This document shows positions 1,340 to 16,344 of a DNA stretch of 40,096 nucleotides, piece after piece (the first letter of the stretch is position 1; each line of letters begins with the position of its first letter). A program made the translations under genes and the position numbers. The notes beneath the pieces are model-generated. The model did no database searches and was not told the origin of the DNA. It saw only the letters and a list, made by a program, of their open reading frames with translations. Source of the DNA: Desulfobacterales bacterium (GTDB taxonomy: Bacteria; Desulfobacterota; Desulfobacteria; Desulfobacterales; JAHEIW01). The stretch lies in NCBI GenBank assembly GCA_050122795.1, contig JASFIG010000003.1, forward strand, positions 1-40,096, given 5' to 3'.

Positions 1340-2203
1340 ATGAAGCATCAAGTGCGAAATGTGGCCCGGATCATCGAGCCTCGACCGGTGCTCGAAGGTG
1401 CCGGCGTGCGGCTCATCAGAAGCATTGCCACCGCCGAGCTGGATCATGTCGATCCATTTTTGCTGTTTGATCATTTTGGATCCAGCAACCCCGAAGATTA
1501 CATCAAGGGGTTTCCCATGCATCCACATCGCGGCATTGAAACCGTCACATACATGATACATGGTAAAGTAAAGCATAAAGACAGTATCGGTAATTCCGGA
1601 AGCATAACTGACGGCGATGTCCAGTGGATGACATCCGGCCGGGGGATTCTGCACGAAGAAATGCCCCAGCAAATTGAAGGTGAAATGAAGGGCTTTCAGC
1701 TGTGGGTCAACCTTCCGGCCAGACTCAAAATGACCGCTCCGCGCTACCAGAATATTACATCCGATCAAATACCGGAAGTTCAACAGGATGGTGGCGTCAT
1801 CATCCGGGTTATCGCCGGTGAAGTCGACGGTACCAGCGGTCCGGTAAAAGAGATTGTCGCCGATCCGATCTATCTGGATGTATCCGTTCCCCCAAACACC
1901 TATTATTCACAGGGGGTGGCCAGCAATCACGCCGCTATCGCCTATGTCTTCGAGGGTGGCGGCGATTTTGGCGCAAACGGCAGCTCACGGGAATCCGTGG
2001 TTGGACATCCACGCATGATTGTCTTTGGTGGCGGGGATCTGGTATCGGTCCGCGCAGAAGACCAAGGTGCGCGCTTTCTGCTAATCGCAGGTAAGCCCTT
2101 GAATGAACCCATCGCTCGCTATGGGCCGTTTGTGATGAATACCCAGGCGGAGATTGAGCAGACCCTGGACGATCTGAGAAAGGGAAATTTTATTCGGAAT
2201 TGA
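1340..2203 (+). CDS. Pirin family protein
   Basis: EGAGV, DPFLLFDHF, GFPMHPHRGIETVTY, WMTSGRGILHEE, FQLWVNLP and YGPFVMN motifs. Confidence 0.95.
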   Translation: MKHQVRNVARIIEPRPVLEGAGVRLIRSIATAELDHVDPFLLFDHFGSSNPEDYIKGFPMHPHRGIETVTYMIHGKVKHKDSIGNSGSITDGDVQWMTSGRGILHEEMPQQIEGEMKGFQLWVNLPARLKMTAPRYQNITSDQIPEVQQDGGVIIRVIAGEVDGTSGPVKEIVADPIYLDVSVPPNTYYSQGVASNHAAIAYVFEGGGDFGANGSSRESVVGHPRMIVFGGGDLVSVRAEDQGARFLLIAGKPLNEPIARYGPFVMNTQAEIEQTLDDLRKGNFIRN

Positions 2204-2313
2204 CTTCCATGTCATCATCTTTTACCGCTGTCTTGAAGCCAATTCCTATTAGAAGTCGTTTCAAAACCATTTATTATAATAAAATCCTTGGCAAATGCGT
2301 GGAGACCTGCTTA

Positions 2314-2808
2314 ATGATCTATCGCAAAACGATAAAAGAACTTATCATTCTGGTGGGTGTTTCGGTAATACTGGCGCTGGCGGTTAACCACCTGTCGCCC
2401 AGAGGTATTGCCCTGGTGGGACAGTGGGAAACGGCAAAAGGCGTTATGACAGCCGACGCCATGGATGATGATAAATATCGCATTGCAGAAATCGACCGGG
2501 TGACCGATGCCGCAAAAATATTTTACGATGATGATACCCTTTTTGTGGACGCACGCTCGACTGAGGATTATGAAAGCGGCCACATCCCGGGAGCCGTATC
2601 ATTGCCGGTGGGCCAATTTGATGAACGGATTGAAGTGTTCATGAAACAGGTCCCGCTGGATCAGCCCATCGTTACCTATTGCTCGGGCCGAACATGCGAA
2701 GACAGCCATCAACTGGCCCGGTTGCTCATGGAGGCCGGGTTCAGTGAGGTGCGGATTTTTATTGACGGTTTTCCAGGCTGGCAGGCGGAGGGATATCCGA
2801 TTGATTAA
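2314..2808 (+). CDS. Membrane-anchored rhodanese-like domain protein (CxxxxC loop)
   Basis: N-terminal hydrophobic helix, FVDAR, GHIPGA, IVTYCSGRTCEDS, GFPGW. Start moved to ATG 2314 because GGAG lies at 2301-2304. Confidence 0.85.
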   Translation: MIYRKTIKELIILVGVSVILALAVNHLSPRGIALVGQWETAKGVMTADAMDDDKYRIAEIDRVTDAAKIFYDDDTLFVDARSTEDYESGHIPGAVSLPVGQFDERIEVFMKQVPLDQPIVTYCSGRTCEDSHQLARLLMEAGFSEVRIFIDGFPGWQAEGYPID

Positions 2809-3295
2809 CTTGCGACAGGCCATTATCAATAATAGCTGGATCGAACTGGTGGCCCGCTGGATTCTTGGATTGACATTCATATACGCCAGCTTCCACAAAA
2901 TCCTGGCACCGGGGGAGTTTGCCAGAATTGTTTACGGTTATGACCTGTTCCCACATGTTTTCATCAATCTGATCGCCATCATTATTCCGTTTATGGAGCT
3001 GGTTGCCGGATTAGCCCTGATCATTGGGATTTATCCGCGCTCAGCGGCCATTATCATTAATATAATGCTGCTGGCCTTTGTGGCAGCCTTAACGATCAAC
3101 ATCATTCGCGGCCGCGAATTTGATTGCGGCTGTTTTTCTGTTGGTCAGAGCGGATATACCGGCTCATCCGAAGTGACCGTGTTGCGCGACATTCTCTATT
3201 TTCTGTGTGGGATGCTGGTGATATTGTTTGAAGGCAGTCGCAGAGGCTGCCTTGGCCGCCGCTGTTCTTCGAATTCGTCCAATCCTCTATTATAG
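2801..3295 (+). CDS. MauE/DoxX family redox-associated membrane protein
   Basis: About four hydrophobic segments, P..ELVAGLALIIG and DCGCF motifs. In-frame TTG at 2801 overlaps the upstream stop; start is uncertain. Confidence 0.8.
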   Translation: MINLRQAIINNSWIELVARWILGLTFIYASFHKILAPGEFARIVYGYDLFPHVFINLIAIIIPFMELVAGLALIIGIYPRSAAIIINIMLLAFVAALTINIIRGREFDCGCFSVGQSGYTGSSEVTVLRDILYFLCGMLVILFEGSRRGCLGRRCSSNSSNPLL

Positions 3296-3308
3296 TTGGG
3301 AAACATAG

Positions 3309-3515
3309 ATGGCAGACCTGATTTGTTACTGTTTTGAATACACCGCAGAAGACATCCGGCAGGATTGGCTTGAACACGGGCGCTCGACGATTGTTGAAAA
3401 AATCGCAGCGCAAAAGAAAATGGGAAACTGTGAGTGCACCACCAAAAATATCAGCAGCAGGTGATGCTTATCTGACGTCCGCCAGGTGGTGGATCAGATA
3501 AAAAATTCTTGCTAA
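3309..3515 (+). CDS. Small BFD-like (2Fe-2S)-binding selenoprotein, 68 aa, Sec at residue 52; missing from the ORF track
   Basis: Translation with TGA 3462-3464 read through: MADLICYCFEYTAEDIRQDWLEHGRSTIVEKIAAQKKMGNCECTTKNISSR-U-CLSDVRQVVDQIKNSC*. Pattern ICYCF...CxC..KN.S.R(C/U)C matches the CopZ-associated/BFD-like 2Fe-2S domain. Strong SECIS-like hairpin and a downstream terminator. Confidence 0.85.
3468..3501 (+). promoter_or_regulatory. Bacterial SECIS-like hairpin
   Basis: TTATCTGA-cg-TCCGCC-aggt-GGTGGA-TCAGATAA: 8-bp lower stem, 2-nt bulge, 6-bp upper stem, AGGU loop starting 19 nt after the UGA. Confidence 0.75.
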
Positions 3516-3541
3516 ATTCGACAGCTTCGAATTTCTCAGAT

Positions 3542-3583
3542 AGCAGGCAAGGGAAGTGCTTGATCTCCTTTGCCTGTTTTTTT
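3542..3583 (+). terminator. Rho-independent terminator after the small selenoprotein gene
   Basis: AGCAGGCAAGGGA pairs with TCCTTTGCCTGTT (two G-U pairs), followed by a T run. Confidence 0.7.
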
Positions 3584-3584
3584 G

Positions 3585-3631
3585 TTGACAAAAAATATAC
3601 AGTCCCTCATATTCAATAAATCAATTGAATA
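3585..3631 (+). promoter_or_regulatory. Sigma70-like promoter with overlapping ArsR-type operator palindrome
   Basis: TTGACA 3585-3590, 17 nt, CATATT 3608-3613; inverted repeat TATTCAAT-N6-ATTGAATA at 3610-3631 just upstream of the ArsR-rhodanese gene. Confidence 0.65.
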
Positions 3632-3647
3632 CTATAAAGGTGTCAAA

Positions 3648-4325
3648 ATGAAGAATCCAAATCGCGCATTTAAAGATTCCATCTATGAGCAATTTGCTCG
3701 CATCGGCAAGGCGGTTTCCAGCCCCAGGCGTTTGGAACTCCTTGACCTCCTTTGCCAGGGACCTCGAACAGTGGAAGTGTTGGCCAACGAGTCCGGTTTG
3801 ACCATCGCTAATGCCTCCCAGCATCTTCAGGTTTTGCGAGCTGCCCGGCTGGTGGAGGCCGACAAAGATGGCCTGTATGTCATTTATCGGCTTGCCGATC
3901 AGCAAGTTTGCGAGTTTTTCCGGTCTATGCGGTTGCTGGCTGAGAGCCGCCTGGCCGAAGTGGAACAAATCAAAAGTCGTTTCCTGGATGGCAGAGAAGG
4001 AATGATGCCGGTAGACCGTAAAAAGCTTCTAAAACTTGTGCGCGAAGATGCAGTGACCGTTTTGGATGTGCGCCCGTCGGTAGAATACAATGCCGGGCAT
4101 ATTGCCGGCGCTCTATCTATTCCGCTCAAAGAGTTGCAGCAGCGTTTGTCGGATTTACCGCGCCATCAGGAAATCGTGGCCTATTGCCGCGGACCGTATT
4201 GTGTTCTTTCGGTTATGGCAGTGGAAATTCTTCGTTCGCGTGGATTCAAGGCTGTTCGACTTGAAGAAAGTATTCAGGATTTCCGCGCCCTGGGGTTTCC
4301 GATCATTGGAAACGAAAAGGTCTAA
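3648..4325 (+). CDS. ArsR/SmtB-family regulator fused to a rhodanese domain
   Basis: KAVSSPRRLELLDLL, ANASQHLQVLR (winged HTH); VLDVRP, GHIAGA, VAYCRGPYC (rhodanese). Start set at ATG 3648, downstream of the promoter. Confidence 0.9.
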   Translation: MKNPNRAFKDSIYEQFARIGKAVSSPRRLELLDLLCQGPRTVEVLANESGLTIANASQHLQVLRAARLVEADKDGLYVIYRLADQQVCEFFRSMRLLAESRLAEVEQIKSRFLDGREGMMPVDRKKLLKLVREDAVTVLDVRPSVEYNAGHIAGALSIPLKELQQRLSDLPRHQEIVAYCRGPYCVLSVMAVEILRSRGFKAVRLEESIQDFRALGFPIIGNEKV

Positions 4326-4413
4326 GTTCATTTTGCATAGCGAACAAAACACAGCGGGTGAAAAAATAAACCTCTAAACAGATGATTCAATAGGGCAAAC
4401 GGAAAGCCGGGCG

Positions 4414-6150
4414 ATGAGCCGTTTGAAAAAAAATTTGTTGGTGCTGGCAGCTGTATTGCTGACCGTTGGTTATCTCTGGCAGGTCAATCGAGAGGTTGCT
4501 CCCCAAACAGCCACCTGGCAGGATGTGCTGGCGGAAGCCAGTCAAGGCGGTTATCAGTTGATAACCACCGATGATTTAGCCAGCAAGTATAAGGTAAAAC
4601 CGGATTCTATCCTTCTGGTCGATACGCGCCAGGAGTGGGAATACCGCACCGGCCATATAAAAAAAGCCGTAAATTTTCCGATGGAGCCGACCTGGCTGTC
4701 ACGCTGGCGCAACAAAGGTGCCCTCGAAAAATTACTGGGCTCGGACAAAAATCGTTTCATTGTATTTTACTGAGCAGGGCTGGCGTGAGCCCGTAGCGAC
4801 TCGGCGGCCCGGGTGGCCGTAAAGCTTGGTTATCAATATATCTTTCGTGACCCCATGGGCTATCCGGAATGGCATGCCCGGGGGTTGCCGGTTGACAGCT
4901 CCGCGGCCGGTCTTTCTGAAACATCGCTGACCCCCCAACAGTCAAAACCGTTACACGGCTGGGCAATGATCTGGACGCTTTTAGGAATCTTTGCCGGCGG
5001 AATCGCCCTGAACCTGACGCCCTGCATCTACCCATTAATTCCGATTACGGTTTCCTATTTCGGCAGCCAGCGCGCTGGAAGCCAGCGAACGCTCTTCATC
5101 CATGGCGCTTGCTATATCGGAGGGCTGGCAATCACCAACTCTGTGCTTGGCGTGGTAGCAGCGCTGACCGGCGGAATGTTTGGCAGTTTGCTGCAACATC
5201 CGATCGTGCTCGCTGCGGTGGCGGCAGTCCTGGTTATTTTTGCCACCAGTCTCTTTGGCCTCTGGGAAATCCGTCTTCCCTATGCGTTGTCGCAGGCGGC
5301 TTCAAAGACCTATACCGGTTATTTAGGCAGTCTTTTCATGGGACTGACATTGGGCGTGGTTGCTTCTGCGTGTATGGGTCCATTTATCTTAGGCCTGTTA
5401 ACCTGGGTGGCGACGATTGGAAACCTGTGGATCGCATTTTTAATCTTTTTTACGTTGAGCCTGGGTCTTGGCCTCCCCCTCTTTTTGCTGGCGCTGTTTT
5501 CCGGACAGCTGAGCAAACTTCCTCGTTCCGGTGAATGGATGCTGTGGGTTAAAAAGCTGCTCGGCTGGATTTTAGTGGGCATGGGCGTTTATTTTATTCA
5601 GCCGCTATTGCCTGAAACCGCGAGAACTTTCTTGCTGGCCAGCGTGGCTCTGGCAGCGGCATTGCACCTGGGGTGGATAAATCTCAGCCGCGCCGAGTTT
5701 CGTGGATTCGAGTGGATGCGAATCGCGGCTGCAACCGTGGGACTCATCATCGCTACGCTTCTAATCGGGTCATGGGTGCTTCGCGGTCCCGGTGTGGCCT
5801 GGCTATCCTACTCAGAAACATTGCTGGTGGAAGCCCGGCGATTAAAAAAACCGGTGGTGCTTGACTTTTATGCCGACTGGTGCGCCCCCTGCCGTGCACT
5901 GGATAGCGTCACTTTTCATGATCCTGAAATCGTCAAACAGGCAAAAAAAGATTTTGTCATGATCAAGATTGATCTCACCCGCAGAGGCAATCCACTGCAT
6001 GAAAACCTTTTACGCCAATACCGTGTGAAAGGGGTTCCCACCGTCGTATTCCTGGACCGTCAGGGAAAGGAACGAAATGATTTACGTCTGGTAGATTTTT
6101 TACCTGCCGATCAATTTCTTGCACGCATGGCGGCGATTAAAAGCAACTAG
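4414..6150 (+). CDS. Rhodanese / DsbD-transmembrane / thioredoxin fusion selenoprotein with two Sec (U120, U125), 578 aa
   Basis: ORFs 4414-4773 and 4813-6150 are in the same frame. Read-through gives IVFY-U-AGLA-U-ARSDSAARVAVKLGY, the rhodanese CxxxxC loop. DsbD-like TM domain (NLTPCIYP, ASACMGP) and C-terminal DFYADWCAPC thioredoxin. Confidence 0.85.
4804..4820 (+). promoter_or_regulatory. SECIS-like hairpin downstream of the two UGAs
   Basis: GCGGCC-cgggt-GGCCGT; loop starts 21 nt after the second UGA and 36 nt after the first. Confidence 0.5.
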
Positions 6151-6236: not shown

Positions 6237-6509
6237 ATGTTGAAGGTTAGATTTTTTATGAACCTGCCCAACGGCAGGCCGCGAAAGCACTTTAAGAAAA
6301 TGATGCCCAGGTTGGGCGCAAAATTTGATATCGAGATAGAATCGATCGAAAAACCAAAAGACGAATATATGACCGACGAATATTTTGAGCTTGATCTACC
6401 GGTGGCTCCGGCAGTGATGGTGGGCGATGAAATAATCGTTGAAGGATCCGATATTCGTAGGGGAAAATTGGAACGAGCAATCAGCCGTCATCTGGAATCT
6501 TTGACATAG
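6237..6509 (+). CDS. Small thioredoxin/glutaredoxin-fold protein with no Cys or Sec (possible de-selenised homolog)
   Basis: GGAGG RBS before ATG 6237; cis-Pro-type PVAPAVMVGDEIIVEG motif; NLPNGRPR at the position of the redox motif. Confidence 0.7.
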   Translation: MLKVRFFMNLPNGRPRKHFKKMMPRLGAKFDIEIESIEKPKDEYMTDEYFELDLPVAPAVMVGDEIIVEGSDIRRGKLERAISRHLESLT

Positions 6510-14545: not shown

Positions 14546-15730
14546 TTACTTGTTCGGTGAGTCCGAAGAACAGTCGCAGCTCGGGCAGCAATCAGACACC
14601 ACCGACAGCGACTCGGACAGCGTTTTGTCAGGCTCAGATGTGGCTTTTTCCTGCGCCCCTGCAGGTTTGAAGCGTGTCCTGATGGCATGCCAGACAGGCT
14701 TGATGGACATCGCCAGAATCGCAAGCGCACCGATCACCCCGGCCCAGCGCGGTATAATTTCAGATGCCTGACCCACCACCGCCTGGGCTGAGATGCCTAA
14801 AGATGCATACACCTGATCGACGATCAAGCCGAATAAAACGGCGCAAACCGCAATGGATGTCAGGTAAATGGCGGTGGCCCGCTTACCCAGCACACCGGTC
14901 AAGACCGTTAAAGAAGCGATATTGGTCGCCGGCCCGGCTAAAAGAAACACCAGGGCAGCACCCGGGCTGACCCCCTTGAGGATCAGGGCCGCCGCAATGG
15001 GAGTCGAGGCTGTTGCACAGATGTACAACGGAATGCCCACCGCCAGCATGATCAGCATGGCGGGCAGTCCGGCACCCAGGTACTCGCTGAACATATCCGG
15101 CGGGATCAGCACCGTAATCAACCCGGCCAGTATCATTCCGATCATAAACCAGCCGGCCAGGTCATCCCAGAGATCATTGACGGCAAAACGCATGCCGGCG
15201 GCAAGCTTTTCCCCGAAAGTGTGATGGTGCCGATGCTCTTCAGGCGAACAGTTTTCCCCGTCGCAACAACCATCCACCGGGCAGGTGAGATCCGGGGTGA
15301 TGCGCGTCGTTTGGTTGTTTGATCCAAAAAGGTTTTCGGTAATGCCGGCAACCGCCGCGGTGATAAAGGCCACCACCGGACGCGCCACGGTCATGATGGG
15401 ATCCAGCAAGGCATAGGTGATCGAAATGGAGTCCACACCGGATTCGGGAGTTGAGATCAAAAAAGCGGTGGTGGCACCATTGCTGGCGCCCTGTTTGCGC
15501 AGCGACACGGCTGCGGGCAGCACGCCGCACGATCACAACGGGATGGGGATGCCGAAAAATGCGGCTTTTAAAACGGATTTAAAGCGTCCCTGCCCCAGGT
15601 GCCGTGTAATCGAACTTGGATTTAAAAATACCCGTAACAATCCAGCCACCAGCAATCCGAACAAAATGTAAATCGATGCGTCAACCAACAAATCCCACGT
15701 CGCCAGCAATATTTCGATGATAAAGTTCAA
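14546..15730 (-). CDS. DUF318/ArsP (SO_0444-like) metal-efflux permease, selenoprotein with Sec at residue 66, 394 aa
   Basis: ORFs 15533-15730 and 14546-15523 are in frame. Read-through gives GIPIPL-U-SCGVLP versus the family motif PLCSCGV. Also TPESGVDSI, PLYICATASTP and LLAGPATN motifs. Confidence 0.85.
15498..15515 (-). promoter_or_regulatory. SECIS-like hairpin
   Basis: Minus strand CGCAGC-cgtgtc-GCTGCG; loop starts 23 nt after the UGA at 15535-15533. Confidence 0.5.
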
Positions 15731-15910
15731 TTCGTTTCCTCATTTGAAAGGTGTCAGTGTTCCCTCCTTCGCCTGATAGGCTTTGGAGGGCAAGCACATG
15801 CGAGCATTCAGAGACCAGAATTTAGAAGACATATGATAATTGCATGTGGATCAAAAATTCTGTTGGTCATCTGTCCTCTGTTTTCTGTCTTCTGTCTTCT
15901 GAAGAATTGG

Positions 15911-16285
15911 TCATTCCGAAACGTGCTCTAACCCTACATTCAACAACTCGGCCACATGCTCATCATCCAGCGAATAATAGATTACCTGGCCCTCGCGCCG
16001 GCTTTTGACCAGCGCCAGATCCCGAAACCGCCGCAGTTGATGCGACACGGCCGACTCGGTCAGCCCCAGAAACGCGGCCAGGTCACAAACGCACATTTCA
16101 ACGTTTTTGAGCGCCATGACGATCTTCAGGCGGCTGGGATCTCCCAGGATTTTATAAATCGACGACAGGCGTTCAATCTCTTTTTCCGAGACGGTTTCTC
16201 TGCGTGCCCGCTCGACCCGATCCAGGTGGATCACCCGAACCTGGCAATCGACTCCGTCTAAACATTTGGCCTTTGCTGAGCTCAT
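15911..16285 (-). CDS. Metal-sensing ArsR/SmtB repressor (SmtB/ZiaR/CadC-like)
   Basis: EMCVCDLA (alpha3) plus N-terminal Cys, SAVSHQLR, and alpha5 site DEH-x10-H-x2-E; start ATG 16285 after GGAG. Confidence 0.9.
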   Translation of the reverse strand: MSSAKAKCLDGVDCQVRVIHLDRVERARRETVSEKEIERLSSIYKILGDPSRLKIVMALKNVEMCVCDLAAFLGLTESAVSHQLRRFRDLALVKSRREGQVIYYSLDDEHVAELLNVGLEHVSE

Positions 16286-16300
16286 TTCCACTCCTTGAAT

Positions 16301-16344
16301 ATATGAACAGACATTCATATAATTACTTTACATCCAATTGTCAA
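16301..16344 (-). promoter_or_regulatory. SmtB/CzrA-type operator overlapping the promoter
   Basis: Inverted repeat ATATGAA-cagaca-TTCATAT at 16301-16320 (TGAA-N6-TTCA core); minus-strand TTGACA at 16344-16339. Confidence 0.8.

Follow-up and report, generated by a model that had tools for sequence, protein, structure and literature searches.

A UGA-containing gene of a Desulfobacterales bacterium encodes a 68-residue selenoprotein with a predicted CopZ-type [2Fe-2S] domain

A 68-codon gene with an in-frame UGA

Positions 3309-3515 of the window (the whole stretch of 40,096 nucleotides analysed here) very probably encode a selenocysteine-containing protein of 68 residues with a single CopZ-N-terminal/BFD-like [2Fe-2S] domain, in which the selenocysteine, Sec52, would be an accessory residue and which would serve the thiol and metal stress genes around it. 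Four independent lines of evidence, namely the conservation of codon and protein, an RNA element, homologues with Cys at the same site and the encoded machinery, establish that UGA 3462 is a selenocysteine codon. The gene and the elements associated with it are as follows.

3309-3515, plus strand: coding sequence of the 68-residue selenoprotein, with ATG at 3309, Sec codon at 3462-3464 and stop codon TAA at 3513-3515
3462-3464, plus strand: TGA as selenocysteine (U52), a TGA in 47/47 aligned genes and aligned with the first Cys of a CC pair
3468-3501, plus strand: SECIS-type hairpin (8 + 6 bp, bulge of 2 nt, AGGU loop at 3484-3487)
3542-3584, plus strand: intrinsic-terminator-like hairpin (13-bp stem, 3542-3578) with a U-run, 27 nt after the TAA

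Translation from ATG 3309 with table 11 gives a product of 51 residues that ends at TGA 3462-3464, the single in-frame TGA of the frame that runs on to TAA 3515. When this TGA was read as U, 16 further codons were added and a product of 68 residues was obtained, with the C-terminus ...KNISSR-U-CLSDVRQVVDQIKNSC and the Cys/Sec pattern C6-x-C8 ... C41-x-C43 ... U52-C53. Both the 51-residue frame and its read-through to 68 residues had been proposed in a preliminary description of this DNA, and translation reproduced both. A routine gene call would end the 68-codon gene at 51 codons or overlook it altogether, and its correct reading adds one selenoprotein to a stretch that also holds TsoB (two Sec), TsoC and an SO_0444-type transporter.

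Two further wetland-metagenome DNA runs contain contigs that are identical to 3309-3515, with 0 differences, and a 225-nt contig from a metatranscriptome library was likewise identical to 3300-3524 (0 differences), covering the whole ORF across the UGA. In the same metatranscriptome run, 3542-4681 was without cover. The neighbours of the gene lack cover in RNA run X20 and in most of X21, from which we draw no conclusion. Since contigs cannot show transcript ends and RNA libraries can contain DNA, the 225-nt contig is a hint only that the 68-codon gene is expressed. The terminator that had been placed after the TAA was borne out, as the region 3505-3585 folds at -27.9 kcal/mol (z -4.21); a simple terminator scan returned just an inner 6-bp version of the 3542-3578 stem. 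Between the selenoprotein gene and the terminator lies a perfect 8-5-8 inverted repeat (3514-3534, plus strand), which overlaps the TAA and may serve as an operator or just belong to the terminator region.

Conservation of the selenocysteine site

Relatives were sought by a six-frame search, reading through stops, of 61 genomes, 28 of which gave a match; an in-frame TGA was present at 32/32 of the places listed, and the closest relative was 73% identical to the window protein. The same kind of match was then sought in 401 genomes drawn evenly from the phylum. Of these, 49 matched, 43 with a TGA-containing match, making the family widespread, and 6 with a Cys-type match only, which was stop-free and lay in a longer frame. 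The Sec site read TGA-TGY in 48/48 related loci fetched and led into C-L-x-D-V-R-x-V-V, and all six Cys/Sec positions were invariant in a 48-sequence alignment. A lack of similarity downstream of the UGA had been named beforehand as the result that would speak against recoding; the opposite was found at every one of these loci.

A scan of 1.84 billion protein representatives yielded 820 proteins at E <= 0.001, and residue 52 was examined in the 161 stored proteins matched by the family profile. Cys was found in 74, among them the window's own entry with C written for U; 11 had Trp, 3 had Arg, and the remaining 73 ended at the TGA, where gene callers truncate. Trp at site 52 is TGA translated under another code: one of the stored proteins, P0005, equals locus L017 read through its three TGA codons, with W at all of them. 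The CC homologues, which comprise small stand-alone proteins as well as proteins of 140-220 residues with an N-terminal zinc-ribbon part, are colinear with the window protein across the Sec site, and U52 aligns with the first Cys of their pair. Homologues with CC at the UGA site, for which the preliminary description had suggested a search, therefore exist, and its placement of Sec at the first position of the pair agrees with these homologues and with Cys118 of the solved structure 2HU9 described below.

The three proteins with Arg at the Sec site (P0004, P0016 and P0068) keep the D-V-R-x-V-V signature of the Sec form, and the Arg codon CGA is one transition away from TGA. A further Sec form of the family, with TGA and with the stem in register, was seen in L064, a metagenome-assembled genome labelled Anaerolineae. 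Its occurrence in a genome labelled as another phylum reflects one of three things: a wider distribution, gene transfer or a binning error.

A SECIS-type hairpin downstream of the UGA

The hairpin at 3468-3501 folds at -25.1 kcal/mol (z -4.28), and 0/200 shuffled sequences fold as well. Its AGGU loop begins 19 nt past the UGA, and the 14-bp two-part hairpin with an AGGU loop that had been described at this distance was recovered as a fold of 8 + 6 bp. The description of this element as a very clean SECIS holds for the upper stem of 6-7 bp, which forms the conserved core (3477-3494), but not for the lower 8 bp (3468-3475 with 3494-3501), which are found in the window only and are without counterpart in relatives. 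The register of the upper stem was held in 47/47 scored genes with at least 5/7 pairs each (7/7 in 19 genes, 6/7 in 19 and 5/7 in 9), and the loops of these genes were AGGT in 21, GGGT in 17, GTGT in 7 and of other types in 2. Four Cys-form genes of the same sample kept 1-3 of the 7 pairs; these were the 4/6 fetched Cys loci in which the pattern was matched. Across 20 sequences, 92.9% of the cells of the upper stem were paired, versus 28.6-67.9% when the partners were slid.

Codon choice within the stem was strongly biased, with GTC for Val+5 in 40/46, CGC for Arg+6 in 37/38 and GTG for Val+9 in 35/37, compared with 1.5-2.3 bits at the four- and sixfold sites of codons for Ala, Pro, Gly, Thr, Leu and Arg that are conserved to the same degree outside the stem. 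Synonymous sites are thus frozen only inside the stem, which argues for selection on the RNA and not on the protein alone. Covariation in the stem was weak: C-G was exchanged for U-A at a single pair, in 2 sequences, and the observed scores were reached by 30-34 of 500 shuffles. On the sequence evidence, it is therefore the register and the synonymous-site constraint, and not covariation, that make the case for an RNA element. The hairpin has the general features of a bacterial SECIS element, being located just past the UGA, carrying a G in its apical loop and being kept in relatives; Rfam at gathering thresholds gave no match within the window.

Selenocysteine machinery and genetic code

The same genome encodes SelA (523.8 bits), SelB (a 640-codon frame whose wing domain scored 63.4 bits) and SelD (365.9 bits, cut-off 125; L074, G000:C14:4114-5037, minus strand). 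The SelD gene carries an in-frame TGA of its own. A tRNA-Sec was not found by Rfam or ARAGORN in the assembly, which is 84.8% complete and contains just 26 assembled tRNAs; the Rfam tRNA-Sec matches in the genome were rejected, as they correspond to tRNA-Ser, tRNA-Leu and tRNA-Arg. Within the window, TGA serves as the ordinary stop of 7/23 long ORFs and thus is not generally reassigned.

Fold and predicted cluster

A profile of 48 Sec and Cys members of the family was compared with the PDB and matched one solved structure, the N-terminal domain of CopZ from Archaeoglobus fulgidus (2hu9_A, E 4.6e-25). This match came only with the profile, and a phmmer search of the PDB with the single protein returned nothing meaningful. 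In the alignment, C6 and C8 correspond to Cys75 and Cys77, C43 to Cys109, U52 to Cys118 and C53 to Cys119, and Cys41 has no counterpart. The window protein would thus be the cluster-holding half of the CopZ domain alone, with Sec replacing the first of the two paired Cys, and by homology to 2HU9 a bound [2Fe-2S] cluster is predicted for it. The original assignment as a selenoprotein of the BFD-like/CopZ-N-terminal 2Fe-2S type is supported. [quoted passage not shown] An hhalign comparison with E. coli Bfd aligned the CxC part only, over 20 residues with a probability of 5.6%, and so the ligands could not be settled from Bfd.

Roles of the Cys and Sec residues

Substitutions were counted in the stored proteins long enough to include site 53, 88 in all. 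Neither C43 nor C53 was replaced in any of them, and C6 and C8 were never replaced where covered. Site 41, in contrast, was D, D and R in three proteins, and site 52 was Arg in 3/88 and Cys or Sec in 85/88, with W counted as TGA. One protein, P0068, which was seen on 5 contigs, has Arg at both 41 and 52 and retains exactly four Cys, namely C6, C8, C43 and C53. Cys41 is also missing in 2HU9 and in locus L033, which has Ser at this position. Since sites 41 and 52 are replaceable and C6, C8, C43 and C53 never are, Sec is more likely to be accessory than a cluster ligand. The simplest reading would be that C6, C8, C43 and C53 are the cluster ligands and that Cys41 and Sec52 form an accessory pair beside the cluster. 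The ligands of the cluster in 2HU9 are reportedly Cys75, Cys77, Cys109 and Cys119, that is Cys119 and not Cys118, with which this four-ligand assignment agrees. The earlier proposal that CYC...CxC...CC supplies the ligands throughout was consequently too strong, its four never-replaced Cys being retained and sites 41 and 52 not, and the suggestion that Sec ligates the cluster from within the CC pair stands as regards its first position and is weakened as regards ligation. The substitution pattern amounts to a concrete and testable ligand assignment, with four positions never replaced and two that can be; in this family, a selenol stands immediately next to a putative iron-sulfur ligand.

The way in which the protein is made and could work may be outlined as follows. 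UGA 3462 is recoded to Sec by SelB, acting on the hairpin with its core at 3477-3494, and translation continues for 16 codons to the TAA; the product would be a cytoplasmic selenoprotein with one CopZ-N-terminal/BFD-like [2Fe-2S] domain. Cys6, Cys8, Cys43 and Cys53 would hold the cluster, as judged from their never varying, and Sec52 and Cys41 would constitute an accessory selenol/thiol pair next to the ligand Cys53. The selenol may bind or reduce a thiophilic metal or chalcogen substrate; alternatively, Sec52 may cycle via a selenenylsulfide with Cys41. By either route, the neighbouring cluster would supply or remove one electron. We offer this chemistry tentatively and would put it at somewhat less than an even chance. 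The module is envisaged as serving the surrounding thiol and metal stress genes, which include the rhodanese, the MauE/DoxX protein, the ArsR-type regulator and the DsbD-like TsoB with TsoC.

Gene neighbourhood

The genes that surround the selenoprotein gene are listed below.

2200-2808, plus strand: rhodanese-domain gene, upstream of the selenoprotein gene
2744-3295, plus strand: ORF for a MauE/DoxX-family membrane protein, ending 13 nt before ATG 3309
3648-4325, plus strand: ArsR/SmtB-type regulator fused to a rhodanese domain, downstream of the terminator
4414-6150, plus strand: selenoprotein TsoB (NF045694, 978.4 bits, cut-off 805)
6237-6509, plus strand: TsoC (NF045708, 137.4 bits, cut-off 45)

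The neighbour scan covered 150 of the 194 ORFs that flank the gene at 42 loci. The immediate neighbour of the gene is MauE in 7 further loci, every one from the same taxonomic family. Upstream of the gene, 3 of these 7 (L011, L020 and L022) have a rhodanese gene as well, and downstream of it 5 have a rhodanese domain fused to an ArsR-type regulator. TsoB adjoins the selenoprotein gene in 5 genomes of the genus, the window's included, and two 97%-complete genomes have TsoB and lack the CopZ-type selenoprotein gene. Among the wider neighbours of the 42 loci were an ArsP_1 permease and an LMWPc arsenate-reductase-type protein (4 each), TauE, a pyridine-nucleotide disulfide oxidoreductase and thioredoxin (3 each), DsbD and Metal_resist (2 each), and MerR, FUR and a P-type ATPase (1 each). 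The common theme of these neighbours appears, from their domain content, to be thiol, metal and metalloid stress. Outside the taxonomic family the gene context varies, with no universal partner across the 42 loci, and for this reason the partner system is uncertain. TsoA, TsoX and TsoY had no NCBIfam match in the genome, a weak result in that none was obtained in any control genome either.

In TsoB, a fusion of rhodanese, DsbD and thioredoxin parts, the frame contains two TGA codons, at 4771-4773 and 4786-4788, in the loop F-Y-U-A-G-L-A-U-A-R-S; 11 matches in relatives also have two TGA. The RNA after its first TGA folds no better than shuffled sequences (z -0.07). On the minus strand of the window, 14549-15739 encodes a Cu/Zn efflux transporter of the SO_0444 family (NF033936, 428.8 bits, cut-off 300). 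Its frame contains a TGA at 15533-15535, within the motif P-L-U-S-C-G, and table 11 calls only the 325 codons that follow this TGA; an ArsR-family gene (15911-16318, minus strand) is located upstream of it.

In two relatives, the domain is joined to the end of an HMA domain that has GMTUxxU in place of GMTCxxC. These fusions, in the region of L015:1471-1950 (minus strand) and in L035 upstream of 1504, have three Sec codons per frame, including that of G-x-U-C, and the database calls for them begin past the second TGA, as in P0022, an entry that goes by the name 'copper chaperone CopZ' in one source. In two other loci (L010:913-1452, minus strand, and L014:1397-1927, plus strand), the BFD-like gene is immediately followed by a frame of 177-180 codons with an in-frame TGA in the motif C-P-L-U, which is absent from the window. 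Neither copy had a Pfam match (E <= 0.01), and the L010 copy had no NCBIfam match (E <= 0.001); this frame may encode an uncatalogued CxxU selenoprotein.

Deviations of the window's own copy

The residues before Sec in the window are N-I-S-S-R-U. Pro at -4 is found in 46/47 genes and Gly at -2 in 43/47, and with S-R-U-C the window copy has Ser at -2, so that the G of the 'GxUC' motif is missing. This is a deviation of this one copy, its orthology being otherwise clear. The adjacent TsoC also departs from its relatives, in that CGA (Arg, 6282-6284) occupies the Sec position of its N-x-P-x-G-x-x-U motif, a position that is TGA in 6/6 relatives. The contigs of both DNA runs break at 6282/6283 within TsoC, as may be expected of a variant site.

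Alternative readings

If the UGA were a true stop, the gene would encode a 51-residue peptide and the conservation downstream would be that of an attenuator, a terminator or another RNA element. Table 11 does give this shorter ORF, and the tRNA-Sec could not be located in the incomplete assembly. Against it, the frame remains open beyond the TGA for 12-28 codons to a TAA or TAG in 13/20 close loci, and Cys53 is invariant and Leu54 nearly so, even in the Cys homologues that lack the hairpin. The CC homologues run colinear through the UGA site, a 51-residue product would be without the never-replaced Cys53, and SelA, SelB and SelD are encoded in the genome. We therefore consider termination at this codon scarcely credible. 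A different possibility is that the UGA is read through but that the window copy is decaying or functionally shifted, its product impaired and the locus losing its dependence on selenium. The changes of Pro to Ile at -4 and of Gly to Ser at -2, which are unique or rare among the 47 genes, would fit, as would the CGA in the adjacent TsoC. However, there is no damage to the ORF, to any of the six Cys/Sec positions or to the SECIS core, the hairpin is longer than in relatives, the same sequence recurs unchanged in the two other DNA runs and in the RNA-library contig, and TsoB retains both of its TGA codons. Thus, while decay is possible, it is unlikely.

With UGA accepted as a Sec codon, the function of Sec52 could still differ from the accessory one preferred here. 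Were it among the four residues that ligate the [2Fe-2S] cluster, the protein would be a natural selenolate-ligated iron-sulfur protein. Sec52 does sit in the CC pair, of which the five-Cys domain of 2HU9 (C75, C77, C109, C118 and C119) needs at least one Cys, and the predominance of Cys or Sec at site 52 is in keeping with ligation. In contrast, three natural proteins have Arg there, P0068 keeps just the number of Cys that a cluster takes up, and C53 is never replaced, so that ligation by Sec52 seems rather unlikely. Since 2HU9 needs a Cys of the pair, and Sec is found first in one family ('UC') and second in another ('CU', form 2), selenium should be bound to iron in one or the other of them, and the sequences point to the CU family rather than the UC family. 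It is also conceivable that what the six Cys/Sec residues hold is no Fe-S cluster but a metal, for example Zn, Cu(I) or Hg(II), which would make the protein a selenolate metallochaperone. The fusions of relatives to HMA domains with UxxU, the NCBIfam name of the Cys family ('putative ... metallochaperone') and the metal-resistance genes near several relatives are in its favour. However, the homologous domain of 2HU9 is the part that is annotated as cluster-binding, and all five of its Cys are aligned in the profile match, which makes a purely metal-binding role quite unlikely. We thus retain the reading in which four Cys hold a cluster and Sec52 is accessory.

Comparison with known families

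Among the domain models, Pfam Fer2_BFD (PF04324) matches residues 4-62 and has in common with the window protein a small domain and an N-terminal CxC. Its score of 20.2 bits lies below the gathering threshold of 26 (E 7.5e-4), and the window protein has no CxxC pair, the pattern of its family being CxC ... UC. NCBIfam NF047645 (CopZ_Nterm_CC, putative iron-sulfur cluster-binding metallochaperone) matches residues 3-57 with E 8.9e-13, and long Cys homologues of its type are included in the family alignment. In contrast to its members, the window protein lacks the N-terminal 85 model positions, only positions 86-137 (the C-terminal 52) being matched at 48.6 bits versus a cut-off of 100, and it has Sec for the first Cys of the pair. 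NF045877 (CopZ_Nterm_CU, the Csac_0668 family of 2Fe-2S cluster-binding (seleno)proteins, 'form 2', CU) is a selenoprotein family with a related domain. It scored 26.3 bits versus a cut-off of 190, and its Sec, judged by name and motif, is the second residue of the pair where that of the window is the first. The matches to NF047645 and NF045877 are both limited to the C-terminal 50-60 model positions, and no member of NF045877 above its cut-off was found in the 401 phylum genomes.

The window protein aligns with 2HU9 at the CxC, at the single Cys that precedes N-P-S-G and at the CC pair. It differs in being without the extra N-terminal four-Cys zinc-ribbon part of 2HU9 (alignment residues 3-70) and the C-terminal HMA domain of full-length CopZ, in having Sec in place of Cys, and in possessing Cys41, for which 2HU9 has no equivalent.

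The closest known family is the (2Fe-2S)-binding protein (CopZ family) form 1, GxUC, which is given in the selenoprotein reviews PMC9312934 (2022) and PMC13188914 (2026), both of which cite Zhang & Gladyshev 2008 (the GOS paper) for it. The terms 2Fe-2S, CopZ, copper chaperone and BFD are absent from the main text of that paper, and 2Fe-2S, CopZ and copper chaperone are absent from the text of Peng 2016; the supplements of either may hold the family under another name. Its listing in the two reviews means that the family is known and not new. The call of a selenoprotein at this locus was thus correct and is not a discovery: the family is already catalogued, and biochemically uncharacterised, our literature search having found no bench study of any form 1 (GxUC) member. 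The window protein resembles form 1 in its domain type, in the order of Sec then Cys (a UGA at the site of the first Cys of the CC pair, with a Cys codon right behind it), in being a small stand-alone protein of Sec-rich anaerobes and, as regards its relatives, in the Gly at -2 mentioned above; identity with the example sequence of the reviews is judged from motif and domain alone. To the catalogued family, the present analysis usefully adds the synonymous-site evidence for a SECIS element, the four-plus-two division of the Cys/Sec residues and the placement of the gene beside TsoB and TsoC.
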